The translations under genes and the position numbers were made by a program. A stretch of 64,000 nucleotides of DNA from NCBI GenBank assembly GCA_951406725.2, contig OX597827.1, positions 74,276,001 to 74,340,000 of the forward strand, given 5' to 3'. Numbering within the stretch: the first letter of the stretch is position 1; each line of letters opens with the position of its first letter. Shown piece by piece: positions 3,749-61,588 of the stretch. The notes beneath the pieces were generated by a model. It saw only the letters and a program-made list of their open reading frames with translations, was not told where the DNA came from and made no database searches. This stretch comes from Octopus vulgaris (Eukaryota).

Positions 3749-3883
3749 TTTGTTGACAAAAGTCGCCTCTATATCCAGCAGAACATCCATCTGAGCATTT
3801 TCCAGTTATTCTGTCGCAGTTTTCGTCGTCGATACAATGACATGTTCTTCTACAATTGCTACCAAATCTACCAACTTCACATT
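3749..3883 (-). CDS. EGF exon B1 (8-Cys laminin/Tie2-type EGF), contains RGD
   Basis: ttttcAG|AATGT ... CAACAAA|GTatga; 135 bp, phase 1-1; CEVGRFGSNCRRTCHCIDDENCDRITGKCSDGCSAGYRGDFCQQ. Confidence 0.9.
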
Positions 3884-4144
3884 CTGAAAATATTAATATA
3901 AAATACAACAGATTAGATATTATTAGACCCACACAATAAAAGTTATGGCTGTAAGAGTTCTCTTCTACAAATATATGTGAGATATCAAAGACATGCTTTT
4001 TTATTACCTTATCTTAAAGCATAACTCATGAGTTAACATTGAAGTAGTCTTTGATAACAAATAATAAAGGTGATTTACGCTAAGAAACACTAAATCAAAT
4101 GTAGAGAATTTTAAAATGTTGGAATAAAAGGTGTTGGAAATAAC

Positions 4145-4273
4145 CTTCTTGGCAGTTGTACCCGGTGTATCCTGCATCACACACTCCTGGACATAGTCCA
4201 TTTATGTGGTTACATGTTTCGGAACAATGACAGGACTTTGTGCAATTGCGACCAAATCTGCCGCTGAGACATT
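4145..4273 (-). CDS. EGF exon A1
   Basis: atttcAG|AATGT ... CAAGAAG|GTtatt; 129 bp, phase 1-1; CLSGRFGRNCTKSCHCSETCNHINGLCPGVCDAGYTGYNCQE. Confidence 0.88.
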
Positions 4274-4410
4274 CTGAAATAATAAAATAAAAACGTTGGC
4301 TATGAATTGCTATTATAAGAGTTTTATGGTATCTCATAGATGACTCAGTATCCAAGATATTGTAATTTCCTTTAGCGTTAAAACACCAGATAGAGATGAA
4401 TATATACTTG

Positions 4411-6053
4411 ACTACCAGTGATACTCGCCGTTGCCCGTGTTGCATTCAATTGAAGAATCTGTCTTTTCTCTTATAATTTCTGTAATGAACTGGAATATTT
4501 ATGTTTCGAAATGCAGATGAGGGTTATTTGCCTCTTTACACACCCTAAAAAAATTGTATTCCTGCCACATGTATCCCATATTACTGATTTTTATGCGCAT
4601 ATTCTAAAATTCCAGTCTTATTGGATTTTGCTCCTGAAAAATGAACTTCATGGAGCTCTAAAATGTGAGAGTTAAGGCCCCTGTTGGGGGTGGGTGTCTT
4701 GATGTCAAGCAGAGAAGTTGCATTGTTGAGAATCTTTTTAACTTGTGTCTTATATCTATTGTTTGAATTTCTTTGAAATTGGAAATATATGTTCACTGGG
4801 TTTGTAAAAGAGAGCAAAGCTACAGGAAACCGAAAGACGAATGATCACAATGAGCAGTCAGCTACAGTACCCTAGTCGTTACCACTCCTAATGTAGGATT
4901 CCTCACAATCCAGGTGACAGGCACAGCCCTAAGATGCATTACGAATCTATCGCAACTGGAAGAGCGTGACCCAACTGAAATAAACATTAACAACTGTGTG
5001 ACGTGAGTGCTAAGGAGAAATGAAAGTTGGAGTTTGCAAATGACCACTATAGTGATACGTAACTGGACAGAATAAATTTAGAATCTATAAATGGCTTTGA
5101 ATAACCAGTCACTCATCTTAGAGGGCCTTGAAATCAATATTACCATTTGGGGACTATTTGTGTCCCAGTGATAATAAAAAGACTGAAAGGAGGTCTGCAA
5201 TCAAATAACTTTACTCAATACTTTGCAACTGAATCAGTGGAAACAAAGATGCCTTTCGCTTACTTGACAATTTATGCAGCACATTGCAGAAATCACAATC
5301 TAAGTGTATGTCAAAGCAAACTCTTACACTGTTGTACCATTGAATTACAAATAACGCTCATCTTTTATGCTCGGGTAACCCTACAGCTTCCAAGAGTACA
5401 ACGACATTCGTCTTTGCTTAGATAAAATGACAAAATTGTGGGTGTTAAATCCCCATGGATGGGTCTTTCTAACTTGTAAGAAGATAAATTTTATAAATAT
5501 TACTTCATTTGTGTCTAATATCTATGGTTAAAATTTCATCAACAGCAAAATTACATGAATTGTCATTGGGGTTATAGCCCTTATGCATAGAATATAATTT
5601 CCAAATTTCGTAAAGATCCATTCAGTACTTTTGACTTAGTTTTGGATCATAAAAGAAATTACTAAGATTTAGGAGTTAAGGCCCCCATGAGGGTGTCTTA
5701 GAATCCTCATATGAAGAGGAAACTTTCAGAATACTTCTTGATATGTGTCAATTACCCATGGTTGAAATTTCCTCATCATCGAAAATTTATGAATTTTCGC
5801 AGGTGTTCTGCCCCCTTTAAACCATCTGAAATTCAAACCAAACATATTGCATTATACCCGCCCTTATGCATTGAATCTAAGTTTCAAATATTATAAGGAC
5901 CCATACAGTAATTTTGGTCCATGAAATTACAGCATTACCCTTCTCCCTAGGTTTGGATTTTGTGTTCCAAATTACATTATGATCGGTGCAGCAGTTTTCG
6001 AATGTATAAGAAATACACGAACACATATAGACATTGACTTTGATATAATAGAT
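4411..6053 (+). mobile_element. Non-coding ~1.64-kb insertion with DINE-1/HINE-like (non-autonomous rolling-circle) ends
   Basis: Interrupts the intron after 'tatatacttg' compared with other units; starts actaccagtgatactcgccgttgcccg and ends gcagttttcgaatgtataag...gactttgatataatagat. Confidence 0.5.
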
Positions 6054-6103
6054 ATGAATGTGCACATATACATACATGTATACATACATATATATTTGAT
6101 TGA

Positions 6104-6253
6104 TTTCTTTCAGTTTCTGTCTACATAATCCACTGGCAAGGCTTTGGTTGGTCTGAGGCTATAGAAGACAGATGCCAAGTCACCACAGTGGGACTGAACC
6201 TAGGACCATGTGTTTTGGAACGAAGTTTGTTACCACACAGCCACACCTGCACC
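6104..6253 (-). mobile_element. tRNA-derived SINE head/body; copies at ~10845-10994, 25046-25195, 29795-29944
   Basis: Reverse complement shows a box A-like TGGCTGTGTGG and a box B-like GGTTCAGTCCC, followed by ...accaaagccttg...gaaactgaaagaa. Confidence 0.75.
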
Positions 6254-6308
6254 TATGTATGTGTGTGTCTTTATGTGTGTATGGGTATATATATGTATGC
6301 CTGTATAT

Positions 6309-7159
6309 AAAAGTACAGTTCCCCAAATTCCTGCAGAGCTTAAGGACAACCTTGAGAACCCTGTTTCCACAAAAAACTGTTTGCCGGAACTGCACAAAAC
6401 CGCATTTCACGGGAGGGCTACCACTACTTTCAGAAAACCACTACTTTCAAGAAAATCGTCGCAATGCATTTAGAGTGGCGTGAAAACCTAGAGAATTGGT
6501 GCCCAGAGCATCCTTTTCCTAATTTCCGACAAGCGGTCGAGTATACGAGTGGAGAGAGCAAAAAGAAGCAGGAAGCATTTGACCCAGACTGCTTTCTTCC
6601 AACTGAACTGTTAAATATGGAGTGGGATCTGTGATGATCTGGGGTGGGGATGCATCTCTGAAATTCTCCGGCCCAATTGTTTCCCTTCCTGGCAGAATTA
6701 ATAGTGAAGGCTATTTTATCTAATCATTTTATCTAATCAAAGTCGTCCTATGGTTGTGGAACTGTTTCCTGAGAGAAACGGAATCTGTCAGAATGATAAA
6801 GCACCAATTCACACAACTAAAGTTGTTACAGAATGGCAGGAAAATCATTCTAGTGATGTTGAAAAAGTCATCGGGTCACCACAGTCCCCAGATCTCAATA
6901 TTATTGAGCATTTATTGTGCATTTTATCAAAACGCATAAAGAGCCGATATCCTCCACCATATCGACACCAACACTACAAATGATGTAGACTTTTTTACCA
7001 GATGAATGGAAGAAATTTTCTTTGGAAACAATTTTAACTTTGTACGAGTCCATACCTTGTAGAATTAAAGATATAATTATTGCCAACGGCCGTCCTACCA
7101 TATATTAAGATAATTTGTTAAAAATTTCAAGGTGTTTCAATTATTTTGTCCAACGCCTG
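6309..7159 (+). mobile_element. Tc1 remnant, 5'-truncated (unit 2)
   Basis: Colinear with 2452-3282; SPQSPDLNIIEHL motif; 3' TIR present. Confidence 0.88.
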
Positions 7160-7211
7160 TATTTACGTATAACCACACACACGCACACACACGCACACAC
7201 ACACAGACACA

Positions 7212-7284
<73 letters not shown>

Positions 7285-7485
7285 GTGTGTGAGCTACATA
7301 TATATCTGTATTACATAGATATGTATGTATATATATATTATATACATACACACATATATATATATATACATGTATATAAATATGTATATATATATATATA
7401 TACAAATATACATATATATATATGCCTAAATATATATATGTGTATATATATATATACATACACATATTATATATATATATACATA

Positions 7486-7577
<92 letters not shown>

Positions 7578-7581
<4 letters not shown>

Positions 7582-8160
7582 ATTTAGGAATGGTCATATT
7601 GCCAGTTTTGAGCCAATTTTGCTTCAGTGTTATTTATTTTTTACATTAATCTTAATCTTATTTCGGACAGAATTCTTTCGCCACACTCCTGTGACCGCAT
7701 CAAAGGTCCTTTGTTTTCTTCTTTCTTATTTGTGTCTCTCCTTACTAACCATCAGCCAATTTGTATTTCTATTGTATGTCTTCATTTGCGCATGCTTATA
7801 TCTCTATGTGCGTTTATGTTAATTTAGTGTGTGTATGTGGGGGGATGCCTGTAATATTTGTATCTTCTGTTTATATATGTTCATGTAATTTGTATTTTGT
7901 TTTTGTTGTTTATTCTTATTTTGTTCATGTGTTTACATCCACTTATTATAATAATAAGTGGATGTAAACACATGAACAAAATAAGAATAAACAAAAACAT
8001 ATATAAACAGAAGATACAAATATTACAGGCATCCCCCCACATACACACACTAAATAAACATAAACGCACATAGAGATATAAGCATGCGCAAATGAAGATA
8101 TATAGTGCGTGTGTTTTTATTGGCTAAACTGGCAATATGACCATTCCTAAATACAACAAT
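7578..8160. repeat. Long foldback (inverted repeat) centred at ~7950
   Basis: Outer arms tgtatttaggaatggtcatattgccagttt / aaactggcaatatgaccattcctaaataca; inner arms ~7780-7948 versus ~7952-8097. Confidence 0.88.
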
Positions 8161-8198
8161 ATCTGTTTCAACACACGATTTCACTTAAAAAATCTTGC

Positions 8199-8254
<56 letters not shown>

Positions 8255-8499
8255 TAAATACATGTATAGGTATATGTATAAATACATCCACATACAGTCA
8301 TACAACATACATAAAATCGCATGCAGCCCACATATCTCAATATGGATTCACGAAGTATTTAATGAATGTTAGTTTGGCAAATATATTGGTTATAAACCTG
8401 TATAGTTCTCATCAGGAAATAAACGGAAAGATAAAGTAAGAATCAGATGCAGAGATTTAAACATATTTTTATGAAATGTATTATAATTTCATATCATAC

Positions 8500-8634
8500 T
8501 TTGTTGACAAAAGGCGCCTCTATATCCAGCAGAACATCCATCTGAGCATTCTCCAGTTATTCTGTCGCAGTTTTCGTCGTCGATACAATGACATGTCCCT
8601 CTACAATTCCTACCAAATCTACCAACTTCACATT
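8500..8634 (-). CDS. EGF exon B2
   Basis: AG/GT intact; CEVGRFGRNCRGTCHCIDDENCDRITGECSDGCSAGYRGAFCQQ. Confidence 0.9.
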
Positions 8635-8893
8635 CTGAAAATATTAATACAAAACACAATAGATTAGATATTATTAGCTCCACACAATAAAAGTTATGGC
8701 TGTAAGAGCTCTCTTCTACAAATATATGTGAGATATCAAAGACATGCTTTTTTATTACCTTATCTTAAAGCATAACTTATGAGTTAACATTGAAGTAGTC
8801 TTTGATGATAAATAATAATGTTGACTTACACTAAGAAACTAAATCAAATGTAGAGAATTTTAAAATGTTGGAATAAAAGGTGTTGGAAATAAC

Positions 8894-9022
8894 CTTCTTG
8901 GCAGTTGTACCCGGTGTATCCTGCATCACACACTCCTGGACATAGTCCATTTATGTGGTTACATGTTTCGGAACAATGACAGGACTTTGTGCAATTGCGA
9001 CCAAATCTACCGCTGAGACATT
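8894..9022 (-). CDS. EGF exon A2
   Basis: AG/GT intact; same peptide as A1. Confidence 0.88.
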
Positions 9023-9159
9023 CTGAAATAATAAAATAAAAACGTTGGGTATGAATTGCTATTATAAGAGTTTTATGGTATCTTATAGATGACTCAGTAT
9101 CCAAGATATTGTAATTTCCTTTAGCGTTAAAACACCAGATAGAGATGAATATATACTTG

Positions 9160-10794
9160 ACTACCAGTGATACTCGCCGTTGCCCGTGTTGCATTCAATT
9201 GAAGAATCTGTCTTTTCTCTTATAATTTCTGTAATGAACTGGAATATTTATGTTTCGAAATGCAGATGAGGGTTATTTGCCTCTTTACACACCCTAAAAA
9301 AATTGTATTCCTGCCACATGTATCCCATATTACTGATTTTTATGCGCATATTCTAAAATTCCAGTCTTATTGGATTTTGCTCCTGAAAAATGAACTTCAT
9401 GGAGCTCTAAAATGTGAGAGTTAAGGCCCCTGTTGGGGGTGGGTGTCTTGATGTCAAGCAGAGAAGTTGCATTGTTGAGAATCTTTTTAACTTGTGTCTT
9501 ATATCTATTGTTTGAATTTCTTTGAAATTGGAAATATATGTTCACTGGGTTTGTAAAAGAGAGCAAAGCTACAGGAAACCGAAAGACGAATGATCACAAT
9601 GAGCAGTCAGCTACAGTACCCTAGTCGTTACCACTCCTAATGTAGGATTCCTCACAATCCAGGTGACAGGCACAGCCCTAAGATGCATTACGAATCTATC
9701 GCAACTGGAAGAGCGTGACCCAACTGAAATAAACATTAACAACTGTGTGACGTGAGTGCTAAGGAGAAATGAAAGTTGGAGTTTGCAAATGACCACTATA
9801 GTGATACGTAACTGGACAGAATAAATTTAGAATCTATAAATGGCTTTGAATAACCAGTCACTCATCTTAGAGGGCCTTGAAATCAATATTACCATTTGGG
9901 GACTATTTGTGTCCCAGTGATAATAAAAAGACTGAAAGGAGGTCTGCAATCAAATAACTTTACTCAATACTTTGCAACTGAATCAGTGGAAACAAAGATG
10001 CCTTTCGCTTACTTGACAATTTATGCAGCACATTGCAGAAATCACAATCTAAGTGTATGTCAAAGCAAACTCTTACACTGTTGTACCATTGAATTACAAA
10101 TAACGCTCATCTTTTATGCTCGGGTAACCCTACAGCTTCCAAGAGTACAACGACATTCGTCTTTGCTTAGATAAAATGACAAAATTGTGGGTGTTAAATC
10201 CCCATGGATGGGTCTTTCTAACTTGTAAGAAGATAAATTTTATAAATATTACTTCATTTGTGTCTAATATCTATGGTTAAAATTTCATCAACAGCATGAA
10301 TTGTCATTGGGGTTATAGCCCTTATGCATAGAATATAATTTCCAAATTTCGTAAAGATCCATTCAGTTCTTTTGACTTAGTTTTGGATCATAAAAGAAAT
10401 GACTAAGATTTAGGAGTTAAGGCCCCCATGAGGGTGTCTTAGAATCCTCATGTGAAGAGGAAACTTTCAGAATACTTCTTGATATGTGTCAATTACCCAT
10501 GGTTGAAATTTCCTCATCATCGAAAATTTATGAATTTTCGCAGGTGTTCTGCCCCCTTTAAACCATCTGAAATTCAAACCAAACATATTGCATTATACCC
10601 GCCCTTATGCATTGAATCTAAGTTTCAAATATTATAAGGACCCATACAGTAATTTTGGTCCATGAAATTACAGCATTACCCTTCTCCCTAGGTTTGGATT
10701 TTGTGTTCCAAATTACATTATGATCGGTGCAGCAGTTTTCGAATGTATAAGAAATACACGAACACATATAGACATTGACTTTGATATAATAGAT
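9160..10794 (+). mobile_element. Copy of the DINE/HINE-like insertion
   Basis: Near-identical to 4411-6053 (8-bp deletion near 10295). Confidence 0.5.
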
Positions 10795-11049
10795 ATGAAT
10801 GTGCACATATACATACATGTATACATACATATATATTTGATTGATTTCTTTCAGTTTCTGTCTACATAATCCACTGGCAAGGCTTTGGTTGGTCTGAGGC
10901 TATAGAAGACAGATGCCAAGTCACCACAGTGGGACTGAACCTAGGACCATGTGTTTTGGAACGAAGTTTGTTACCACACAGCCACACCTGCACCTATGTA
11001 TGTGTGTGTCTTTATGTGTGTATGGGTATATATATGTATGCCTGTATAT

Positions 11050-11900
11050 AAAAGTACAGTTCCCCAAATTCCTGCAGAGCTTAAGGACAACCTTGAGAAC
11101 CCTGTTTCCACAAAAAACTGTTTGCCGGAACTGCACAAAACCGCATTTCACGGGAGGGCTACCACTACTTTCAGAAAACCACTACTTTCAAGAAAATCGT
11201 CGCAATGCATTTAGAGTGGCGTGAAAACCTAGAGAATTGGTGCCCAGAGCATCCTTTTCCTAATTTCCGACAAGCGGTCGAGTATACGAGTGGAGAGAGC
11301 AAAAAGAAGCAGGAAGCATTTGACCCAGACTGCCTTCTTCCAACTGAACTGTTAAATATGGAGTGGGATCTGTGATGATCTGGGGTGGGGATGCATCTCT
11401 GAAATTCTCCGGCCCAATTGTTTCCCTTCCTGGCAGAATTAATAGTGAAGGCTATTTTATCTAATCATTTTATCTAATCAAAGTCGTCCTATGGTTGTGG
11501 AACTGTTTCCTGAGAGAAACGGAATCTTTCAGAATGATAAAGCACCAATTCACACAACTAAAGTTGTTACAGAATGGCAGGAAAAACATTCTAGTGATGT
11601 TGAAAAAGTCATCGGGTCACCACAGTCCCCAGATCTCAATATTATTGAGCATTTATTGTGCATTTTATCAAAACGCATAAAGAGCCGATATCCTCCACCA
11701 TATCGACACCAACACTACAAATGATGTAGACTTTTTTACCAGATGAATGGAAAAAATTTTCTTTGGAAACAATTTTAACTTTGTACGAGTCCATACCTCA
11801 TAGAATTAAAGATATAATTATTGCCAACGGCCGTCCTACCATATATTAAGATAATTTGTTAAAAATTTCAAGGTGTTTCAATTGTTTTGTCCAACGCCTG
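11050..11900 (+). mobile_element. Tc1 remnant, 5'-truncated (unit 3)
   Basis: Near-identical to 6309-7159. Confidence 0.88.
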
Positions 11901-11955
11901 TATTTACGTATAACCACACACACGCACACACACGCACACACACACAGACACACAA

Positions 11956-11994
<39 letters not shown>

Positions 11995-12192
11995 CATGTG
12001 TGTGTGAGCTACATATATATCTGTATTACATAGATATGTATGTATATACATATTATATACATACACACACACACACATATATATATATATACATGTATAT
12101 AAATATGTATATATATATATATATATACAAATATACATATATATATATATGCCTAAATATATATATGTATATATATATATACATACACATAT

Positions 12193-12215
<23 letters not shown>

Positions 12216-12223
<8 letters not shown>

Positions 12224-12802
12224 ATTTAGGAATGGTCATATTGCCAGTTTTGAGCCAATTTTGCTTCAGTGTTATTTATTTTTTACATTAATCTTAATCT
12301 TATTTCGGACAGAATTCTTTCGTCACACTCCTGTGACCGCATCAAAGGTCCTTTGTTTTCTTCTTTCTTATTTGTGTCTCTCCTTACTAACCGTCAGCCA
12401 TTTTGTATTTCTATTGTATGTCTTCATTTGCGCATGCTTATATCTCTATGTGCGTTTATGTTTATTTAGTGTGTGTATGTGGGGGGATGCCTGTAATATT
12501 TGTATCTTCTGTTTATATATGTTCATGTAATTTGTATTTTGTTTTTGTTGTTTATTCTTATTTTGTTCATGTGTTTACATCCACTTATTATAATAATAAG
12601 TGGATGTAAACACATGAACAAAATAAGAATAAACAAAAACATATATAAACAGAAGATACAAATATTACAGGCATCCCCCCACATACACACACTAAATAAA
12701 CATAAACGCACATAGAGATATAAGCATGCGCAAATGAAGATATATAGTGCGTGTGTTTTTATTGGCTAAACTGGCAATATGACCATTCCTAAATACAACA
12801 AT
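12216..12802. repeat. Foldback, copy 2
   Basis: Near-identical to 7578-8160. Confidence 0.88.
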
Positions 12803-12824
12803 ATCTGTTTCAACACACGATATC

Positions 12825-12901
<77 letters not shown>

Positions 12902-13155
12902 GTATATAGATAAATACATGTATAGGTATATGTATAAATACATCCACATACATCCATACAACATACATAAAATCGCATGCAACCCACATATCTCAATATG
13001 GATTCACGAAGTATTTAATGAATGTTAGTTTGGCAAATATATTGGTTATAAACCTGTATAGTTCTCTTCAGGAAATAAACGGAAAGTTAGAGTAAGAATC
13101 AGATGCAGAGATTAAACCATAATGTTATAAAATATGTTTTAGTTTTATATCATAC

Positions 13156-13290
13156 TTTGTTGACAAAAGTCGCCTGTATATCCAGCAGAACATCCATCTG
13201 AGCATTTTCCAGTTATTCTGTCGCAGCTTTCGTCGTCGATACAATGACATGTCCCTCTACAATTCCTACCAAATCTACTAACTTCACATT
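13156..13290 (-). CDS. EGF exon B3
   Basis: AG/GT intact; CEVSRFGRNCRGTCHCIDDESCDRITGKCSDGCSAGYTGDFCQQ. Confidence 0.88.
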
Positions 13291-13549
13291 CTGAAAATAT
13301 TAATACAAAACACAATAGATTAGATATTATTAGCTCCACACAATAAAAGTTATGGCTGTAGGAGCTCTCTTCTACAAATATATGTAAGATATCAAAGACA
13401 CGCTTTTTTATTACCTTATCTTAAAGCATAACTCATGAGTTAACATTGAAGTAGTTTTTGATGATAAATAGGAAAGTTGATTTACGCTAAGAAACTAAAT
13501 GAAATGTAGAGAATTTTAAAATGTTGGAATAAAAGGTGTTGGAAATAAC

Positions 13550-13678
13550 CTTCTTGGCAGTTGTACCCGGTGTATCCTGCATCACACACTCCTGGACATA
13601 GTCCAATTATGTTGTTACATGTTTCGTAACAATGACAGGACTTTGTGCAATTGCGACCAAATCTACCGCTGAGACATT
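13550..13678 (-). pseudogene. EGF pseudo-exon A3 (splice acceptor lost)
   Basis: Acceptor CAG changed to CAT (plus-strand a at 13679); frame open but with S>Y, H>N and N>I changes (CHCYETCNNIIGLC). Confidence 0.8.
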
Positions 13679-14052
13679 ATGAAATAATAAAATAAAAACG
13701 TTAGCCATAAATTGCTATTATAAGAGTTTTATGATATAGTATGGATGACTTAATATGCTAGATATTGTTATATATTTTAGCATTACAGACCCTAGATAGA
13801 GATGAATATATACTTGATTCCTCATTGTATTTCCACGTGGATCAATGAAATGTCACTACAGATAATAAGATGAAAGTATTCGGGTAAAATAAAATTCCAT
13901 GAAATATCAAATACAGATAATTATAAAGAATCACGAGCTGAACACGACTTCTTTCAGCAACTTTTTCATACGTCGCCCTCTGTATATCAGAAATGGTGTT
14001 CAATGGTGATAGATTTATTAATGAATGACAGTTTGGTAAGTAGCTTGCTTCC

Positions 14053-15264
14053 GGTTCCGGTCGTTAGTTGTTATTCACTCGCCTGTTGAAGTCGCAACGT
14101 TGGTTTGCAGCTGGCGAAAATTAAAAGACACTCTACTGTAAGGTAAGACTTTTTGCTTCTTGAGTCCAGTAGGATTTGTTGCTTGTAGGTTTTATATTTT
14201 GTACTAGCACGGAGGCGAGATGGATCGAGGAGACCATCCGGCGAGGCCTGGGGGATAGCGGGCCCAGGCTATTGAGTGTAGAGATTACTCCCGCGGTCGA
14301 CTAGGAGGGGTCAAAGGCAACTTTGACCCTGTGGACCCCGGTGGCCGTGGGAGATATGATATTCCCACACTTCCTAAAAATGGCCGGGTACAGGTACCCG
14401 GTATTACTCGAGGGACGCCCTCCCCCCGAGTGTCACCTGTGCATGGAGCCTGGCCATATCAAAAGGAACTGTCCCGGGGGCCGTGGTGGTGCCCTGGAGC
14501 ATGAGGAAGAAAAGGTGTCCGCCGCCCCCTTATTGGAGGGGGAGACGGTACAAGTCGTGGTGGAAGTTGCCTCCACGAAAGGAAAAAGAAAGGTGAGCAA
14601 CAATGGTTGCTCACCAAAGAATGTTCAAGCGGCGGAGGAGGGTTGCGACCCTCCGCGTCTGTCGACGCAGCCCCCTACACCCGCAACCTCAAAAGAAAGA
14701 GAAAAAAGAGGAGCAGAGGACGGTCTGCGGATGTTCCTGGGCCGCCGACGGAGCCACCTGCGGATAGGGCTCCATCAGTGGGAAGTGTGCCACTGACGGA
14801 GCAGTGTGAAGTCCCTTCCTGTGAAGAGGAGGTGTTTGTCCTCCTTTACCACGAGGGAGGGACGGTGAGTAAATTTTTGGACGGCTTGGGTGACCGAGAA
14901 CGTGTGTACTCGGTCTACTCAAGTAGTCCGATATAGCATCCGCAGGTGGCTGAGGAGGCAGTTACTGAATAAATTTTGTCAAAGGTCGCTGTGAAAGAAT
15001 TTGCTTTCCTCTTTGCAGGCCCCGACTTATCGATGCAGAGTTGTCTGCAGTCGGCAAGTCACTTAGCTTGGGGGACCTGAAAAAGAGAATTGTAAGAAAA
15101 TTTTATATTGTTGTAAAGAAACTTTGTATTCGAGGGTTTATCGGTCGGTGGGCGCCAACATCCCTCCCATCCGCATTATTTCGTTCCATTTCATCTCATC
15201 CTGTCTATGTCCAGCCCACAAGCTTCTATCTGTGTACAGCCCTTGTGGCAAATTATATGAAATA
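14053..15264 (+). mobile_element. Internally deleted L1/Tx1-like non-LTR retrotransposon (ORF1 zinc-knuckle remnant) inserted in a SINE head
   Basis: GC-rich; CCHC knuckle CHLCMEPGHIKRNC; A-rich 3' end; 15-bp TSD aagtagcttgcttcc (14038-14052) / aagaagcttgcttcc (15265-15279); no endonuclease or RT seen. Confidence 0.72.
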
Positions 15265-15408
15265 AAGAAGCTTGCTTCCCAACCATATAGATCCGGGTTT
15301 AATCCCACTGCGTTGTACATTGGGCGTCTGTCTTTTACTATAGCGTCGGGCTGACCAAACCCTTGTTAGCAGATTTGGTCGGCGGAAACTGAAAGAAGGC
15401 AGTCGGAT
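15265..15408 (+). mobile_element. tRNA-derived SINE (remainder after the insertion); copy at 33437-33580
   Basis: cttgcttcccaacca...ccgggtttaatcccactgcg...gggctgaccaaa...ggaaactgaaagaag; uninterrupted version at 54425-54548. Confidence 0.75.
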
Positions 15409-15445
15409 GCATATATATACACACACACACACACATAAGTATATG

Positions 15446-15522
<77 letters not shown>

Positions 15523-15708
15523 AGGTGAATGAATTATCTTAGTATGGATAATTCGGTTAACCGATACCTGGGTAGCAAATTCACGTCAGAAAACACGGTT
15601 GAAGCTACATGCCAAATGCAGAAATCCCGTGATCTCGTGTGGAAATTTGTGTGTCTTTTTTAACTATGAATAAATGAAAGAATGAAGTCGAACGACGATT
15701 TAACAAAA

Positions 15709-15807
15709 TTCCTTTACTCTCGACACATGTTTCGAAGGCTGCATATTCTTAATTCCGAAGGAATAAAGGGTGCATTATACCGCCATCTCATCAGGAAAGA
15801 CAAGGAA
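15709..15807 (-). ncRNA. Type I hammerhead ribozyme motif (intact core), sense to the host pre-mRNA
   Basis: UUCCUUGUCUUUC-CUGAUGA-G[extended stem II]C-GAAAC-AUGU-GUC^GAGAGUAAAGGAA; minimal stem III with palindromic ACAUGU. Confidence 0.72.
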
Positions 15808-17633
15808 CTTATGTCAGCATCATGACGAACAAAAACTTTTAGATGACTGCCCACATGATGTCCACAGTAATAACGAGTGTTTCTTTAAAATATACCGTTA
15901 TAAGCAATGACGTCAAAATTGGTTGGATGGAGAATGTTCTAAAAAGTTCAAGAGTTCAAATTTGGTTGGAAGGAGAAAGTTCTAGGGAGGTGATAGAGTG
16001 CAAGCTGTATTGTATGGGGATGCGTGGGTGTATGCTATTTTTAATGAGTTTAAGTGCTTGTGTGTGTGTATGTATATAACTGGATTCGTGTCTGTGTGTG
16101 TGTGTGTGCGTGACCGTGTGTGTAGGGGTATAAATGTCAGAAACATTTAGTAGTGAGGTGACAAATTTGTGTCTGTGTGTTCGATTGTGGGTATGATAGA
16201 GAGAGAGAGAGAGAGAGGTAGGGAGATGCAGAGAGAAAGAGGAAAACATATCCCAACAAATTTAGTAGTAATTCTTCATGTACCGTAGTAGAAAAAAATT
16301 TTGTCTATGGTGGTGTTGTAGAAGTGAGACTAAATTATTAAATCAAAGAGTTTATCTATATTAATCATCATTCATATGAGTGGAAAGTATGTCTCTGCCA
16401 ATGTTTGCACTTATAGGATTTTTCTATAATTGTGTTTACCAAGAGGAATTTGGAGAAAAGTATAAAGAAGAGTTCGGAATTACAAATGCCACAGAATTTC
16501 CTGCCCTTATCAAAAGGAAAGGATACAGATAATATGGACCAGTCCAGTTTGAAAGTTATATTGCTGTCCTTAAGACGCCAAACTAATTTACTTAGTCCTA
16601 TACTATGTTGTTTTTTCTTATTTCGGAAAGTTGAATAATGATTGGAAATTCTCTTGGACAATCGAGAAGTTGTCGCGCCAATATCGAAGAAGACACCGGT
16701 ACTGGAAGAAATCTTACACTGGTAAATGGAGTTTTTAATTTTGGAATTGCTGGACAAGAACTTTAATCTGTTAGGGTTTTCCTCCGAGATTAAAACGGAG
16801 TTTCTATTGTTCTGATTGCTGTTAATATTACTGCTATCATTGATCACTACACTATTTCTATTATTGTTATTATTATTAGTTGTACTATCACCGGCAATAT
16901 CCCTGACAATAGAAATGCTGTCGTTGTTACCATCAACACTACCACTGTTATAAATCCCACTAATATTATTATTAATACCAACGCTGTTACGAATGTTGCT
17001 ATTATCAATACTATTTCTATCATTATTATTGTATGTTTGGTTGGAATTGGTTAGAATAGAGTTGTAACTCCCGGGTGAAGAATCTTTGTTTAGCAGCTTA
17101 TTATTATGGGAGGCGATAATTTGTGAAATATTTCTAGTGTTAGAGAATGCAATCTCACCCTATGCGAATTAATAATAGAGTAATACCTAGAATCCCTGGG
17201 AAAGTTCTTAGCTATGGCTTCACGGAACTGTAAGGGAAGATTTGATTTGATTTGCTTCCCGAAAGGTATAACAAACCAGATAGAGTTTTTTGTGGATTTA
17301 GAATTGGTCATATTGTTACTGTTGACAGTAAAGGGAAAAATTCCTGTGCTGGAAATTTGGGGTTGGTTGTCTATTTCTTCCACTGGTCCGTAAATTAATT
17401 TTCTTATCTACAGGGGTGCCGACATTGTTAGAGCTGGAATCAATATTCTCACTATTTCTATTGTTATTAGTTTTCTTATCCTGAGAAGCAATTATTGGTT
17501 TAGAACATTCTCCATCCAACCAATTTTGACGTCATTGCTTATAACGGTATATTTTAAAGAAACACTCGTTATTACTGTGGACATCATGTGGGCAGTCATC
17601 TAAAGGATTTGTTCGTCATGATGCTGACATAAG

Positions 17634-17732
17634 TTCCTTGTCTTTCCTGATGAGATGGCGACATAATGCACCCTTTATTCCTTCGGAATTAAGAATATGC
17701 AGCCTTCGAAACATGTGTCGAGAGTAAAGGAA
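17634..17732 (+). ncRNA. Type I hammerhead ribozyme motif (intact core)
   Basis: CTGATGAG at 17647 ... CGAAACATGTGTC ending at 17719; stem I arms ttccttg.tctttc / gagag.taaaggaa. Confidence 0.72.
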
Positions 17733-17765
17733 TTTTGTTAAATCGTCGTTCGACTCCATTCTTTC

Positions 17766-17837
<72 letters not shown>

Positions 17838-17839
<2 letters not shown>

Positions 17840-18223
17840 AGAAGGATCTGTGATGATCTGGGGTGGAGATTCATCTTGGAAATTCCTCGGCTTAATTGTT
17901 TCCCTTCATGGCAGAATTAATGGGGAAAGCTAATTAGGCAATTTATCTAATCAAATTAATCCTATGGTTGCGGAACTGTTTCCTGAAAGAAACGGAATCT
18001 TTCAGGATGATAATGCACCAATTCACACAGCTGAAGATGTTAGGGAATAGAGACGGTTTTAGCAGACGAATTGAGAATATTTTCTTTGGAATGAATTGAA
18101 ACTTTGTACGAGTCCGTACCTCGTAGTATTGAAGGTGTAATTATTGCCGACGGTGGTCCTACTCCATATTAAGATAATTTGTTTAGAATTTCAAGGTATT
18201 ACCATTATTTTGTCCAACGCCTG
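17838..18223 (+). mobile_element. Tc1 remnant, 3' part with internal deletion (unit 4)
   Basis: GSVMIWG..IFQDDNAPIHTA; 3' TIR ccattattttgtccaacgcctg. Confidence 0.85.
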
Positions 18224-18382
18224 TATTTATATATACACACAAAGACACACACACACACACACACACCACACACATACATATATATATATATACATGTGTG
18301 TGGGGGCTATATATATGTCTGTATTACATAGATATGTGTGTATATACATACTATATATATATATATATACACACATATATAT

Positions 18383-18588
18383 ATCATCATCATCATCATT
18401 GTTCGACCGTGGTCGAGACAATGGAATTTACCATGCTACGCCAGACTTCACGGTCCATCATGGCATTACGGAGGTCCTGTTGCTAGATGCCAGTATCTCT
18501 GGAGATTACATCAGGGTAGGAGAGTGTGTGCCCTCTGGTATTGCGAGTAGATGGCTTCCAGAGGAGAAGAGTAGAAATTACCTCTCTT
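18383..18588 (-). mobile_element. RTE-type LINE 3' fragment; copy at 36747-36952
   Basis: [47 protein letters not shown] followed by a (GAT)n tail. Confidence 0.7.
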
Positions 18589-18733
18589 TCATTTATATAT
18601 ACATGTATATATATATACATATATAGATATATATATATATATATATATATATGTATAAGGTTGAAAAGGAATATATGTATATGTATATATGTATGTACAT
18701 ACATATACATATATATATATACGTAATATTTAT

Positions 18734-18778
<45 letters not shown>

Positions 18779-18782
<4 letters not shown>

Positions 18783-18840
18783 GGTGCCCCAGCATGGCCA
18801 CAGCTCATTAGCTGAAACTGGAAAAATCAAAATCAAATCA
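18779..18840 (+). mobile_element. Very short 3' tail of the LINE family seen at 55050-56500; copy at 37168-37225
   Basis: ggcggtgccccagcatggccacagctc..tgaaact matches 56451-56490 (agcggtgcatcagcatggccgcagctc..tgaaact). Confidence 0.6.
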
Positions 18841-18854
18841 TATATCAAAATTAT

Positions 18855-19088
18855 AAATTAGGGTATCTACGAGATAACACCATGCTGAAAATAGCAGCCA
18901 TAATCTGACTTTAAAACCACCTTAATGGAGAGAAAACAAATAGACAAGATGAAAAGCTAAAAAATTAGTAGTTTCATCTTGTCTATTTGTTTTCTGTCAG
19001 TGTTGATATATGGACAATTAAGGTGTTTTTAGAGTCAGATCATGGCTGCTATTTTCAGCATGGTGGTATCTCATAGATACCCTAATTT
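18855..19088. repeat. ~230-bp imperfect hairpin (foldback/MITE-like)
   Basis: aaattagggtatcta...catgctgaaaatagcagccat...aaaacaaatagacaagatgaaa pairs with tttcatcttgtctatttgtttt...atggctgctattttcagcatg...tagataccctaattt. Confidence 0.85.
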
Positions 19089-19179
19089 TAATTTCAATTA
19101 TTATTACCTTTGAAGGTTCTTTTTTCCATGCTGACCACTTAAAAAAATCGTTATTTTATTGTAAATTAACGATCTTATA

Positions 19180-19235
<56 letters not shown>

Positions 19236-19560
19236 ATGTATGTATGTATGTATGTATGTATGTATGTATGTATATATATATATATATATAAATAAATACA
19301 TGTATATGTATATGTATAAATACATATGCATATATCCATACATGTATACAACAAGCATGAAAACGCATGACACCCATATATCTCATTATGAATTTACGAA
19401 GTATTTAATGAATCTAAGTTTGGAAAATATATTGGTTGTAAACCTGTATAGTCCCCGTCACAATTACCACGTTAATTAAATGAAAGGAAAGATAAAGTAA
19501 GAAACTGATGCAGAGATTTAAACATAATTTTATGAAATGTATCATAGTTTCATATCATAC

Positions 19561-19695
19561 TTTGTTGACAAAAGTCGCCTCTATATCCAGCAAAACATCC
19601 ATCTGAGCATTTTCCAGTTATTCTGTCGCAGTTTTCGTCGTCGATACAATGACATGTCCCTCCACAATTTCTACCAAATCTACCAACTTCACATT
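19561..19695 (-). CDS. EGF exon B4, contains RGD
   Basis: AG/GT intact; CEVGRFGRNCGGTCHCIDDENCDRITGKCSDGCFAGYRGDFCQQ. Confidence 0.9.
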
Positions 19696-22252: not shown

Positions 22253-22286
<34 letters not shown>

Positions 22287-45282: not shown

Positions 45283-45417
45283 TTTGTTGACAAGAGGATC
45301 CTGTATATCCATCAGAACATCCACCTGAGCATTCTCCAGTTATTCTGTTGCAGTTTTCGTCATCGATACAATGACATGTCCCTCTACAATTGCTACCAAA
45401 TCTACCACCTACACATT
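45283..45417 (-). CDS. EGF exon B11
   Basis: AG/GT intact; same peptide as B9. Confidence 0.9.
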
Positions 45418-45681: not shown

Positions 45682-45810
45682 CTTCTTGGCAGTTGTATCC
45701 GGTGTATCCTGCTTCACACACTCCTGAACACGATCCATTTATGTGGTTACATGTTGCGTTACAATGACAGGACTTTGTGCATTTGGGACCAAATTTACCA
45801 TTGTGACATT
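45682..45810 (-). CDS. EGF exon A11
   Basis: AG/GT intact; same peptide as A9. Confidence 0.88.
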
Positions 45811-47978: not shown

Positions 47979-48113
47979 TTTTTTGACAAAAGTAGCCTCT
48001 ATATCCAGCAGAACATCCATCTGAGCATTTTCCAGTTATTCTGTTGCAGTTTTCGTCGTCGATACAATGACATGTCCCTCCACAATTGCTACCAAATCTA
48101 CCAACTTCACATT
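47979..48113 (-). CDS. EGF exon B12
   Basis: AG/GT intact; CEVGRFGSNCGGTCHCIDDENCNRITGKCSDGCSAGYRGYFCQK. Confidence 0.9.
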
Positions 48114-48374
48114 CTGAAAATATTAATATAAAACACAATAGATTAGATATTATTAGCTCCACACAATAAAAGTTATGGCTGTAAGAGCTCTCTTTTATAA
48201 ATATATGTGAGACATCAATGATACGCTTTTTTATTTTCTTACCTTAAAGCATAACTTATGAGTTAACGTTGAAGTAGTTTTTGATGATAAATAAGAAAGT
48301 TGATTTACGCTAAGAAACACTAAATCAAATGTAAAGAATTTTTAAATGTTGGAATAAAAAGTATTGGAAATAAC

Positions 48375-48503
48375 CTTCTTGGCAGTTGTCTCCGGTGTAT
48401 CCTGCATCACACACACCTGGACACGATCCATTTATGTGGTTACATGTTTCGGAACAATGACAGGACTTTGAGCATTCGGGACCAAATTTACCAATGGGAC
48501 ATT
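48375..48503 (-). CDS. EGF exon A12
   Basis: AG/GT intact; CPIGKFGPECSKSCHCSETCNHINGSCPGVCDAGYTGDNCQE. Confidence 0.88.
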
Positions 48504-50766: not shown

Positions 50767-50901
50767 TTTGTTGACAAAAGGCGCCTCTATATCCAGCAAA
50801 ACATCCGTCTGAGCATTTTCCAGTTATTCTGTCGCAGTTTTCGTCGTCGATACAATGACATGTCCGTCTACAATTGCTACCAAATCTACCACCTACACAT
50901 T
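50767..50901 (-). CDS. EGF exon B13
   Basis: AG/GTgtga; CVGGRFGSNCRRTCHCIDDENCDRITGKCSDGCFAGYRGAFCQQ. Confidence 0.9.
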
Positions 50902-51164
50902 CTGAAAATATTAATACAAAACACAATAGATTAGATATTATTAGCTCCACACAATGAAGTTATGGCTGTAAGAGTTCTCTTCTACAAATATATGAGAGAT
51001 ATCAATGACATGCTTTTTTATAATCTTATCTTAAAACATAACTTATGAGTAAACATTGAAGTAGTCTTTGATGATAAATAGGAAAGTTGATTTACGCTAA
51101 GAAACACTAAATACTAAACACTAAAGAATTTTAAAATGTTGGAATAAAAAGTATTGGAAATAAC

Positions 51165-51293
51165 CTTCTTGGCAGTTGTCTCCGGTGTATCCTGCATCAC
51201 ACACACCTGGACACGATCCATTTATGTGGTTACATGTTTCGGAACAATGACAGGACTTTGTGCATTTGGGACCAAATTTACCATTGTGACATT
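51165..51293 (-). CDS. EGF exon A13
   Basis: AG/GT intact; CHNGKFGPKCTKSCHCSETCNHINGSCPGVCDAGYTGDNCQE. Confidence 0.88.
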
Positions 51294-53549: not shown

Positions 53550-53684
53550 TTTGTTGACAAAAGGCGCCTCTATATCCAGCAAAACATCCGTCTGAGCATT
53601 TTCCAGTTATTCTGTCGCAGTTTTCGTCGTCGATACAATGACATGTCCATCTACAATTGCTACCAAATCTACCAGCTTCACATT
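53550..53684 (-). CDS. EGF exon B14
   Basis: AG/GTgtga; CEAGRFGSNCRWTCHCIDDENCDRITGKCSDGCFAGYRGAFCQQ. Confidence 0.9.
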
Positions 53685-53945
53685 CTGAAAATATTAATAC
53701 AAAACGCAATAGATTAAATATTATTAGCTCCACACAATAAAAGTTATGGCTGTAAGAGTTCTCTTCTACAAATATATGTGAGACATCAATGATACGCTTT
53801 TTTATTATCTTATCTTAAAACATAACTTATGAGTTAACGTTGAAGTAGTCTTTGATGATAAATAAGAAAGTTGATTTACGCTAAGAAACATTAAATCAAA
53901 TGTAGAGAATTTTAAAATGTTGGAATAAAAGGTGTTGGAAATAAC

Positions 53946-54074
53946 CTTCTTGGCAGTTGTATCCGGTGTATCCTGCTTCACACACTCCTGGACACGATCC
54001 ATTTATGTGGTTACATGTTAGGGAACAATGGCAGGGCTTTGCGCAATTACGACCAAATTTATCGCTGAGACATT
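53946..54074 (-). CDS. EGF exon A14 (first array exon in transcript order)
   Basis: AG/GT intact; CLSDKFGRNCAKPCHCSLTCNHINGSCPGVCEAGYTGYNCQE. Confidence 0.88.
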
Positions 54075-59800: not shown

Positions 59801-60472
59801 TTGGCCCACGTTCAGTTTGGTGCTTGGAGCACAGATGTGATGATGATTAGAGGAAACAAGACATTGATCAATATATTCCAGCGGTAAACATTCATTAAAA
59901 GTAGAGCCTATAGCGTGTTTATTGCGACAATGCAAGTAGAAAATGGCTGTTTTACATAGTGCAGAGTTCTGATTTACTTTGGTCATCTTTAATTTCGGCA
60001 TAACAAAGATTCTAGACAGTCTGCCTTTGCTGGGAATGTTAAGAACAATATATATTTGAAACTAAGAGTAAATTGTATATTTGTAAACTGAACAGAAAGA
60101 CAGAGAAACAACAATTGAGACCGAAATGTTAAAATAGGGAAAGACACAGAAGAAGAGAAGAAAGATATTACAGGGAAAGCAATCTGTGCCATAAACAGTT
60201 GTAAGATTTCTAATATATTTCCGCATAAAAATTAATATCTCGGCGGTAATAGTAGAAAGTAATCGAGTTAATGAGACAGATTAAGTCCCATAGATTTTCC
60301 AAACAGAATATTAAATAATGATCATACCAGATCATATAAGGTTGATAATGTTAATATTCAAAGGTTATTGCGGATATGGATATTTCTAGAAACTGATATA
60401 AGAAAGATTTGCAATGAAATCTAATAATCCCTCAGTAATATTATTGAGCAGGAGATTAAAAGTTTATCTAAC

Positions 60473-60610
60473 CTATGCACTTCTTTTTACGAGAGTCCCA
60501 GTAATATCCTATAATGCAATCACAGCGTCCCGTTTCTTGATCACATTTAGAGCCTTCACAGAGTTCGCAACGTTCCATACACATATCTCCATAGAATCCA
60601 GGAACACATT
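60473..60610 (-). CDS. Unique 8-Cys EGF exon (not in the ORF track)
   Basis: ttattacAG|AATGT ... TGCATAG|GTtaga; 138 bp, phase 1-1; CVPGFYGDMCMERCELCEGSKCDQETGRCDCIIGYYWDSRKKKCI. Confidence 0.88.
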
Positions 60611-61405
60611 CTGTAATAACAAAAATGATTGAAAAAGAAAATATCACGGTTTCTGTATGTATTTCACGAGCGTTAGCACATAAATATTCAGTTGTAATGA
60701 TATTCTATAGAATGAATATGGTTTAAATTGTTAGGGCTTGAAAGAAGAAATAAGGAGTAATCTTTTAGTGACCTCAAAAATGAACATAACCATGGACAAG
60801 TCGAATGTTTGAAAACACATAATCTTAACGAATCGTGTAAAATGAAATAAGATGAGTGGATGAAAGTTGGCGAGAGTGTAATGGTATATAAAATTATATA
60901 TATTTAGTTTATAAAGTACACCATTGAAATATTTGTTATATCAATCTTAATTAGCTTTATCAACACTCCAGTCAACACCAGTGGAAAGTTTTATGGTCAA
61001 CAGAATGACTTTGTTCATTGGATATAGAGTTCTTGACTGTAGGTAAGCAGTATGCAAGTATATTTGACAAGTGTTTGCTTAGCCTGTAATAGTGAATTGA
61101 AATCGTATCACTAAAGTGTTACTATTTAGGAAAACTATGGCGGGGGAGGGACAAAGAAGTGGGGAAGCAGAAAGATTTCAAAACCGAACCAACCGTCTAA
61201 TGGTAATTAGTATGTTCATTTATGTTCGGAGTTCAAACCCCGCTCTATACATTTTACCTTTTAAACTTTCAGGATCGATAACATAGTTATCAGTCCACTA
61301 TGGAAGTCAAGATAAACGGTTGTATTTTATCTCAAAATCGATAGCTCTGTAACATTCTCAAAAATCAATATTTACCAAGTGAAATAACAAATAAACATAA
61401 CTTAC

Positions 61406-61588
61406 GTAATACTTCCACTTCACAAAGAGTAAGCATTTCATCATCTCCCTCTAACGATATCCAGACATAACTTGCAGTGGGTTGTTTCTTACATTTAATA
61501 TGAATTACATCTTCATTGTATTCATAATATTGACTTTGAAAACAAAGTGATGATCCTACAAAAACTTTAAATCCTTTCAGCCTGTCAC
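61406..61588 (-). CDS. F-type lectin / galactose-binding-like domain, C-terminal half, of a lectin-multi-EGF (MEGF/SCARF-like) protein
   Basis: ttctAG|GTGAC ... GTATTAC|GTAAGT; 183 bp, phase 1-1; DRLKGFKVFVG..LC...IHIKC....ASYVWISL.....LTLCEVEV matches the fucolectin-fold C-terminal signature. Confidence 0.85.

Follow-up and report, generated by a model that had tools for sequence, protein, structure and literature searches.

We found that G7, the lectin-EGF gene in the 64-kb stretch of Octopus vulgaris DNA analysed here (the window), lacks transmembrane (TM) and phosphatase exons, its 3' half being lost in this assembly, and that by its sequence it is a truncated copy of an F-type-lectin/EGF receptor tyrosine phosphatase (PTP) gene. 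The reading we favour, at somewhat better than even chances, is that a copy of the parent receptor gene lost its TM and phosphatase exons and had its two-exon EGF unit multiplied to 15 copies, likely via unequal crossing-over, so that the predicted product would be a secreted lectin whose stalk has as many as 27 EGF modules and which would probably act as a soluble decoy or opsonin alongside membrane-bound siblings. We infer secretion, a role in immune recognition, and a stalk whose length would be varied by copy number and ordinary exon skipping. Such an array can grow and decay because its phase 1-1 exons make the gain, loss or death of a module harmless to the frame.

On its minus strand the window carries the second exon of the F-type lectin domain (61406..61588, 183 bp), then a unique EGF exon, E0 (60473..60610, 138 bp, 8 Cys), and then slots for 14 A exons of 129 bp and 14 B exons of 135 bp, reaching down to 3749. 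In order along that strand, the units are unit 1 (53550..54074; A1 54074-53946, B1 53684-53550), unit 2 (50767..51293; A2 51293-51165, B2 50901-50767), unit 3 (47979..48503; A3 48503-48375, B3 48113-47979), unit 4 (45283..45810; A4 45810-45682, B4 45417-45283), unit 5 (43012..43447; an A5 remnant, B5 43146-43012), unit 6, a copy of unit 4 (40199..40726; A6 40726-40598, B6 40333-40199), unit 7 (37944..38379; an A7 remnant, B7 38078-37944), unit 8 (31317..31839; A8 31839-31711, B8 31451-31317), unit 9 (27443..27965; A9 27965-27837, B9 27577-27443), unit 10 (22691..23215; A10 23215-23087, B10 22825-22691), unit 11 (19561..20085; A11 20085-19957, B11 19695-19561), unit 12 (13156..13678; A12 13678-13550, B12 13290-13156), unit 13, a copy of unit 9 (8500..9022; A13 9022-8894, B13 8634-8500), and unit 14, a copy of unit 10 (3749..4273; A14 4273-4145, B14 3883-3749). 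Near-identity groups these 14 units into 9 classes, and a higher-order duplication with an offset of 18-19 kb (1414..38378) pairs 1414-11213 with 20354-30163, 12010-17846 with 30172-35993, and 17803-19995 with 36174-38378; outside simple repeats, the copies differ at 82 of 8,963 and 52 of 5,214 columns.

All internal ectodomain exons of G7, the array included, are phase 1-1, a symmetry that is the usual condition of EGF modules. Both splice sites are intact in 11 of the 14 A slots: A5 and A7 retain just their last 40 bp, with the acceptor gone, and A12 is dead through an acceptor change from AG to AT (3/14 dead A slots in the window, or 3/15 counting unit 15); A11 has 6 Cys. The array set out in the earlier note (lectin exon, unique EGF exon, 14 phase 1-1 pairs of A and B exons) was thereby confirmed, with its 26 in-frame EGF modules (1+11+14) totalling 1,148 aa. 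Its statement that the B exons encode 13 distinct peptides with every Cys kept also proved true, AG/GT ends and 8 Cys being found in 14/14, but because most B variants are common to non-array paralogs, this intactness would be a weak sign of selection on the array. Pfam searches of single window exons gave no curated match and a weak one to EGF_STAB1-2 only.

The lectin exon of the window encodes the second half of its domain, and seven further G7 exons lie 21-77 kb upstream on the minus strand of G000:C14: a signal peptide exon (74414313-74414238, judged by eye), N1 (74396469-383), N2 (74393502-350), N3 (74380462-313) and N4 (74379225-082), the last two likely forming a degenerate second F-type domain, an upstream EGF exon (74369875-729), and the first lectin exon (74359073-74358813). 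As mapped, G7 comprises 34 exons and 1,549 codons with no stop, with AG at 33/33 acceptors and GT at 34/34 donors. At its other end, 710 bp left of the window, is an assembly gap (G000:C14:74275191-74275290). A 50,000-bp piece on another chromosome (G000:C21:3878995-3828996) matches the gap with single-base precision on both sides when judged against unbroken paralogs, starting one base past the end of G7's contig and stopping one base before the start of G6's; by this sequence fit, the assembly has placed a 50-kb piece of chromosome C14 on C21 in error. The piece carries A15 and B15, followed by the signal-peptide and N1 exons of G6, and B15 has a TGA at codon 11, one lost Cys and a donor changed from GT to CT. 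Neither tblastn nor blastn found a TM or PTP exon in the piece, a deficiency of G7 on which the earlier note was silent. The related genes G5 and c3 terminate in the same B15, also without a TM segment, and among the 40 of 79 candidates scored, the intron after B14 had a full-length match at G7, G5 and c3 only. The terminal exon of G7 would thus lie at unit 15, and the predicted product of the gene, some 1,600 aa long, would be secreted.

G7 belongs to an octopus cluster of 1.66 Mb with at least nine lectin-EGF genes, and for G1, G2, G3, G6, G9 and G10, exons of all four kinds (lectin, stalk, TM and D1-D2) were mapped. There are two D1 types, that of G3, G6, G8 and G10 having KNLH where the other has KNRY. 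The PTP motif HCSAGVGRTG occurs in paralogs and is missing from G7; a single TM helix is present in six paralogs and absent from G7, G5 and c3. Homologs of the window's lectin exon bear PF22633/PF00754 together with PF00102, and relatives with the same domains, among the matches listed, come from chiton, bivalves and gastropods. Hence, of the family proposed in the earlier note, the fucolectin-plus-EGF part stands and the MEGF10/ced-1/SCARF part does not, the parents being F-type-lectin/EGF receptor PTPs. Across paralogs, the types of lectin exon, stalk and phosphatase are reshuffled, and within this one genome stalks hold from 0 to 26 A/B modules. Among the papers listed by a literature search, none described this octopus cluster, and the terms phosphatase, EGF, lectin and draper are all absent from PMC13230822.

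By homology, G7 is expected to have an F-type jelly-roll fold: paralog P0002 matches FBP32 in sequence (E=2e-22), the top eight Foldseek matches of its model are all fucose-binding F-type modules, the model aligns with the two-domain F-lectin 3cqo over 309 columns, and G7 is 73% identical to P0002 over the second lectin exon. The cation motif h2DGx, given for F-type lectins in a section of PMC5712786, is present in G7 as AVDGN. In the fucose motif His...Arg-x-Asp-x4-Arg/Lys, G7 keeps both Arg, with Ser replacing the His and Gly the Asp, and from its sequence fucose binding is not expected; His-Arg-Arg is retained in G2, G3 and G4. Of the two lectin types in the cluster, type I (Ser) and type II (His), only type II would be predicted to bind fucose.

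Three near-identical arrays, in G7, G5 and c3, differ in unit content, G5 lacking unit 9 and having unit 14 doubled and c3 showing a different order again, in line with the earlier note's suggestion of a recently amplified, copy-number-variable stalk. Considered as possible alleles, G5 and G7 differ by 0.4% in their arrays, but are 69% identical around the first lectin exon and do not have the same neighbours; three arrays imply at least two loci. Because the sister arrays differ in unit number and duplicates inside the array diverge by 0.9-2.4% outside simple repeats, the array was likely amplified by unequal crossing-over. That a short stalk was instead expanded in assembly seems to us very improbable, even in a 1.66-Mb region with 10 gaps, redundant copies (G2 and G4 are 0.11% apart), a misplaced 50-kb piece, and a doubled unit 14 in G5 that differs at just 3 of 2,817 columns, since the unit order recurs on separate contigs that have diverged by 0.4-1.0%. 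We give similarly little credence to a Dscam-like cassette, in which a single A and a single B exon would be chosen to yield many binding specificities, although the symmetric exons are many and skipping does occur. RNA contigs bear on this: they came from four of 24 listed runs, covered 1,181 bases of an array of some 53,000, and derive from animals whose haplotypes may differ; the runs were taken as RNA by guess, which splice joints back for three of the four, and contig depth, which sums paralogs, was not used to rank genes. A GT-AG A-B joint was found in two of the four runs (at unit 1, paralog contigs included), a B-to-A3 joint in two runs from two studies, and a B-B joint in one. The A3 start and the B end of the B-to-A3 joint occur, within the 1.66-Mb cluster, in tailless copies only; because A3, with its private start, is common to G7 and G5, these joints are array-type rather than specific to G7. 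Array-type exons are thus seen spliced in RNA, and the B-to-A3 joints speak for serial inclusion. So do eight isoform models of an O. sinensis relative, three with all 11 modules and five with nested subsets. Between the unique intron and the units, a blastn search for docking/selector pairing (word 7, minus strand, 54100-61400 against the units; short or loose pairings can escape it) returned no repeated complementary element beyond (TA)n and one dispersed repeat at 72%. Finally, the 14 units amount to 9 classes behind a single-copy variable head. The earlier note's hypothesis of mutual exclusivity is thus not supported, and its in-frame skipping is upheld by the B-B joint, the nested RefSeq models of the sister species, and the dead exons that anchored paralogs also contain. 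Serial inclusion with exon skipping is supported; the G7 array is no new Dscam, and G7 is likely a long secreted recognition protein rather than a Dscam-style exon lottery.

A more serious competitor, though one we rate as clearly the less probable, is that G7, G5 and c3, though transcribed, are duplicates without function, in which loss of the tail freed the stalk and copy number drifted up while exons died. Consistent with this, A5, A7 and A12 are dead, A11 is short of Cys, B15 has decayed, and three G5 exons carry indels of 1-3 bp, which are either genuine or errors of the consensus. Array-private changes show no Cys protection: in A exons they comprise 2 synonymous and 7 other sites, including two Cys codons lost in A11, and in B exons 2 synonymous and 6 other sites, including one stop and one Cys loss; the argument for constraint from conserved Cys, at P=0.005 when all B variants are counted, is lost when just the array-private ones are, and B-exon pN/pS is 1.0. 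On the other hand, the frame and splice sites of G7 are whole over 34 exons, 8 Cys persist in 14/14 B exons ahead of the stop whereas B15 took stop, Cys and donor losses, and the 5' exons of G7 differ from those of G6 at 53 replacement and 14 silent sites, as anchored paralogs do; because the array is young, these intact features carry limited weight against decay. It is also conceivable, but improbable, that the G7 stalk is spliced past the G6 signal-peptide exon onto G6 N1, giving a giant two-lectin receptor with the anchor and phosphatase of G6. The two genes lie in tandem on the same strand, and the A15 donor and the G6 N1 acceptor, about 46 kb apart, are both phase 1; however, G6 has a start exon of its own, and no EGF-to-N1 joint was found among 24 of 90 loose RNA-contig ends. 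Three runs show no contig cover in the intron after B1, which says nothing on read-through of that intron. G5 and c3 cannot read through because their neighbouring gene is on the opposite strand, and a giant G5-G4 fusion, envisaged when G4 was thought to be without a start exon, was ruled out by the presence of that exon.

The favoured reading, a secreted derivative of a receptor PTP, can be set beside the Biomphalaria SudRes1 and LG5R subgroups 1B/1C, which sections of PMC12297450 and PMC13712769 describe as MEGF/galactose-binding-domain receptor-like PTPs, in snail clusters tied to schistosome resistance and with EGF loss between haplotypes. Like the octopus anchored genes, those receptors have a signal peptide, a galactose-binding/fucolectin domain, multiple EGF modules, a single TM and tandem PTP domains, and alike too are the clustered paralogs, haplotype copy-number and structural differences, EGF-domain loss and diverse ectodomains. 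G7 has the signal peptide, the galactose-binding/F-type domain and multiple EGF modules, but lacks the TM and PTP and has an intragenic array of 15 units that brings its stalk to as many as 27 modules; it would thus be a derivative rather than a SudRes1-type member, and the likeness is one of architecture. Oyster bindin, as sections of PMC5712786 describe it, is an F-type lectin diversified by recombination in a domain-splitting intron, repeat number and splicing, with some isoforms without the His-Arg-Arg triad; it repeats the lectin domain and works in fertilisation, whereas G7 repeats the spacer behind a single head. The stalks of MEGF10/Draper/CED-1 and SCARF1, where tandem EGF modules form a long curved stalk (in a section of PMC11563577), are similar in sequence to that of the octopus. 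No EMI domain was matched in 4/4 full-length relatives scanned, and 3/4 have a PTP tail. MEGF10/Draper/CED-1 proteins are defined by an N-terminal EMI domain and a non-catalytic tyrosine-motif tail, and automatic names such as 'draper' on relatives mirror the stalk only. Dscam1 has tandemly duplicated symmetric exons, chosen in mutually exclusive fashion through docking/selector sites; the G7 array shares the symmetric duplicated exons, but shows no mutual exclusivity and no docking/selector elements were found, and its near-identical units would alter length more than specificity. CD45/PTPRC, which undergoes isoform splicing, is a single gene with a mucin/FN3 ectodomain and no lectin head. 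It is a tandem D1-D2 receptor PTP whose ectodomain height sets its exclusion from phagocytic contacts (in part of bioRxiv 10.1101/250373). This suggests how stalk length could be of consequence for anchored octopus paralogs, although the model is not directly applicable to G7 because G7 has no phosphatase.

Most ectodomain exons are more variable than their introns: the F3 exon has 35/171 variable sites against 35/439 in flanking introns (P=3e-5), and six non-lectin ectodomain exon sets pooled have 95/816 against 138/2589. PTP exons are less variable than introns (11/1224 against 304/4296); among ectodomain exons, the exceptions are the type II first lectin exon, which falls below its introns (14/264 against 40/421), and the EGFu exon, which equals them. 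For the lectin, with synonymous and replacement counts of 11 and 57 and an expected share of 0.209, dN/dS did not exceed 1 significantly (P=0.21), so that positive selection was not borne out. Variable ectodomains with a conserved catalytic tail are a signature like that of other recognition genes, to which tailless long-stalk copies add a soluble-versus-anchored axis. To our knowledge, candidate polymorphic receptors in cephalopod immune recognition are few; because it joins a snail-resistance-like architecture to this signature, the octopus cluster offers a concrete locus for association tests. Speculatively, and with considerable doubt, one could envision a combinatorial innate-recognition locus in which recombination assorts two deeply diverged lectin exons with stalks of 3-27 modules, two phosphatase tails and soluble or anchored ends, splicing trims the stalk further, ligand choice is diversified independently of receptor height, and tailless long-stalk copies serve as decoys for inhibitory receptors. 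The range of 0 to 26 A/B modules provides a natural series for testing the gating of a receptor phosphatase by height in animals other than vertebrates. A search for long arrays among database proteins (at most 2,000 aa, and a weak search) gave 3 matches among 4 candidates, none above 15 modules. One orphan contig carries 14 stalk exons; in O. sinensis, model P0009 has 691 aa and no TM, and P0004 combines 15 modules with a TM, so that a long stalk also occurs in a gene that is not tailless.

The window spans positions 74276001-74340000 of chromosome C14. Its gene, G7, lies on the minus strand in a cluster of paralogs (G1 to G10) on that chromosome, and we conclude that it is a tailless, long-stalk derivative inside this module-shuffling cluster. 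Its segment of lectin plus unique 138-bp EGF exon (E0) has nine matches of at least 92% within 1.4 Mb, and in the databases the window lectin exon is related to Octopus proteins that combine F-type lectin with tyrosine-phosphatase (PTP) domains, one named O. vulgaris protein matching G1 exon by exon at ~100%. With parts of that protein as queries, cluster exons were mapped over 1.664 Mb of C14. Six genes carry lectin, stalk, transmembrane (TM) segment and two PTP domains, with differing numbers of slots for the paired stalk exons A and B (G1, 9; G2, 12; G3, 3; G6, 8; G9, 10; G10, 4); G4 and G8 are interrupted by gaps, 14 stalk exons lie on one orphan contig, and a long array is present at three places, G7, G5 and a third place, c3. 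The distant relatives outside C14 carry one A/B module (C30) or none (C3). Seven further G7 exons lie 21–77 kb upstream of the window lectin exon, giving 34 exons with 1,549 open codons and canonical splice sites; having neither TM nor PTP domains, G7 is not a receptor PTP. More divergent EGF and PTP exons prolong the cluster at C14:74796000-75093000, and a run of more than 40 EGF exons at C25:21081000-21234000 is likely a conventional MEGF gene. The first PTP domain of G3, G6, G8 and G10 has KNLH instead of the substrate-loop motif KNRY and retains WPD and HCSAGVGRTG; these tail copies are 99–100% alike, and the four genes are possibly a second receptor class of altered activity.

The exon positions proposed in the earlier note were borne out: a 183-bp lectin exon, E0 and 14 slots of A (129 bp) and B (135 bp), all phase 1-1. 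All 14 B exons are intact and, as it had claimed, encode 13 distinct peptides, and the 26 modules come to 1,148 aa, against its ~1150. Both splice sites are present in 11 of the 14 A slots; two are 40-bp remnants, one lacks an acceptor, and one otherwise complete A exon lacks two Cys. Duplications are nested within the array (2.7-kb units ~93% alike, a 5-kb and an 18–19-kb duplication), and the divergence between internal duplicates, simple repeats excluded (0.91%, 1.0% and 2.43%), exceeds that of a copied read. A 2.1-kb insert with inverted ends (274 bp, 97–98%) stands at window 15670-17771 and 33820-35921; its 263-aa frame had no Pfam match and looks, by eye, like a Penelope-type endonuclease. 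Transposon remnants comprise a zinc knuckle (window 14305-14796; PF00098, E 0.003), a broken reverse transcriptase (55365-56433; PF00078, E 5e-5) and what is presumably a broken Helitron-like helicase end (63500-63950).

The probable 3' end of G7 was found elsewhere in the assembly. The C14 contig breaks off at a gap of 100 N, 710 bp to the left of the window. A stop-bearing B exon on C21 pointed to a gap-bounded piece there, exactly 50,000 bp long (G000:C21:3828996-3878995), whose proper place is this C14 gap (74275191-74275290). Its first base continues the G7 contig end, G5 being unbroken across the same point, and its last base directly precedes the G6 contig start, according to G5 and G4. 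It contains, in order, A15, B15, ~26 kb of intron-like or intergenic DNA, and the G6 signal-peptide and N1 (N-terminal) exons, which are missing from C14. The round length suggests a scaffolding break; the adjoining piece, C21:3778896-3828895, is likewise exactly 50,000 bp and is possibly misplaced too. B15 has a TGA at codon 11 and its donor changed from GT to CT. In the C21 piece no TM exon was found (blastn with TM queries matched only intron flanks), and PTP queries had no matches. G5 and c3 finish with the same B15, followed by no TM within the next 39 kb and 48 kb, respectively; thus all three long arrays with a visible end are tailless. By a hand sum, the predicted G7 product would be ~1,600 aa long and carry 27 EGF modules after its lectin. 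An AATAAA ~95 bases past the stop in the C21 copy is missing from G5 and c3 and may be there by chance.

The earlier suggestion of a copy-number-variable stalk was upheld, as unit content differs among the arrays: G5 lacks unit 9 and has unit 14 doubled, and the unit order in c3 is different again. In a tree built from 44 segments of B units (every unit of G7, G5, c3 and G3, only the first 2–3 of G1, G2, G6 and G10), G5 and G7 units pair by position and the 14 G7 units fall into nine classes. The arrays of G5 and G7 are 0.4% apart, and c3 is 1.0% from each of them; a diploid animal with three versions must have at least two loci. One G5 intron holds a tandem array of 372-bp units, 99.5% alike (C14:74057131-74062239), which the same G7 intron lacks.

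Four of the 24 listed public runs, taken as RNA, were mapped on 1,181 bases that contain A1 and B1, with a likeness of 88% chosen to admit paralogs as well. Cover was concentrated on exons, in run X16 reaching tens of thousands against ~44 in the intron, a sum over paralogs and no measure of G7; X13 showed neither exon pile-up nor exon joint on these bases. A 261-base skip with GT-AG ends occurs in X14 and X16. Among the loose ends, A is joined to differing B starts, and a B-to-A3 joint appears in X14 and X17, from two studies. Within the assembled cluster the A3 start is confined to G7 and G5 and the joined B end to G7, G5 and c3, all tailless copies, and therefore tailless-type exons are spliced in series. 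A B-to-B joint was seen in X17; the dead A12 may force such a joint. For one spliced B-to-A joint in X16, the A start has no counterpart in the assembled cluster; the joint is from an allele or paralog missing from the assembly. The anchored G1 and G6 also contain dead stalk exons, which must therefore be skipped, and eight predicted RefSeq models of a relative in O. sinensis have 11, 11, 11, 10, 10, 9, 8 and 7 modules, all subsets of the longest. The Dscam-type exon choice raised earlier was not sustained: docking/selector pairing was looked for and not found, and tailless-type exons are joined in series. Read-through past every window B donor gives three residues, a stop and, 300–720 bases on, AATAAA, and the TM-less 691-aa O. 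sinensis model P0009 terminates in this way; intronic polyadenylation could give secreted forms of any length, from anchored paralogs too.

Around the first lectin exon the paralogs are of two types, ~70% alike. This type does not depend on the type at the N-terminus, at E0 or at the phosphatase: for each of these, all four pairings occur. G3 and G10 are 99–100% alike at N1 and P4, and 71% at the first lectin exon. Most ectodomain exons have a higher density of variable sites than their flanking introns, and PTP exons a lower one (gap columns removed; G4 and G9, near-copies of G2, omitted from the lectin sets, and G5 from N3); the exceptions are the first lectin exon of type II and the exon EGFu. 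Replacement-to-silent ratios are near neutral and not significantly above, and we infer that old ectodomain variants have been retained while conversion homogenises introns. The array variants are mostly inherited from paralogs, and Cys codons are not spared by those private to it; these variants therefore do not demonstrate that the array itself is constrained. The main rival reading makes G7 a transcribed relic, which we regard as possible but rather doubtful.

Our preferred reading is that G7 would yield a secreted lectin head carried by a long spacer that is glycosylated (13 sequons), most plausibly a decoy or opsonin, a role we favor with modest confidence. In the anchored parents, the lectin head would serve to bind a surface ligand, a glycan or another, and a phosphatase threshold would be set inside the cell; their stalk height may govern squeezing out of close contacts, by analogy only with CD45, for which such exclusion by height has been shown (bioRxiv 10.1101/250373). 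A breakpoint in the intron that follows unit 15 likely cost the G7 ancestor its 3' half. Freed of the anchor, or perhaps already before this loss, the stalk likely lengthened through unequal crossing-over, its symmetric exons tolerating each unit gained or lost. A 1.0–1.4-kb repeat, in both orientations, lies at C14 ~73906000, 74091800-74096500 and 74420300-74424300, flanking G5 and standing before the G7 start; it may have driven the G5 inversion and the 3'-half loss.

In the Biomphalaria papers (PMC12297450, PMC13712769), resistance loci resemble the octopus cluster in architecture, clustering and EGF-number variation; TM-less members are counted in the latter as possible fragmented annotations, and tailless forms may be listed in the supplements of both. 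Bindin shares the means of lectin diversification (PMC5712786). Among listings of open-access papers, we found no description of the octopus cluster.

Both the structure model of the paralog protein P0002 (mean pLDDT 72) and its sequence are best matched by F-type lectins. Judged against the fucose/cation motif in PMC5712786, the G7 lectin retains the cation motif and both Arg, with Ser replacing His and Gly replacing Asp, so from these residues its ligand is likely not fucose; the His-Arg-Arg triad is retained in G2, G3 and G4. In the 14–21-kb intron dividing the lectin domain, G7 and G6 have in common a degenerate copy of part of the first lectin exon (C14:74356383-74356493 and 74228192-74228296).
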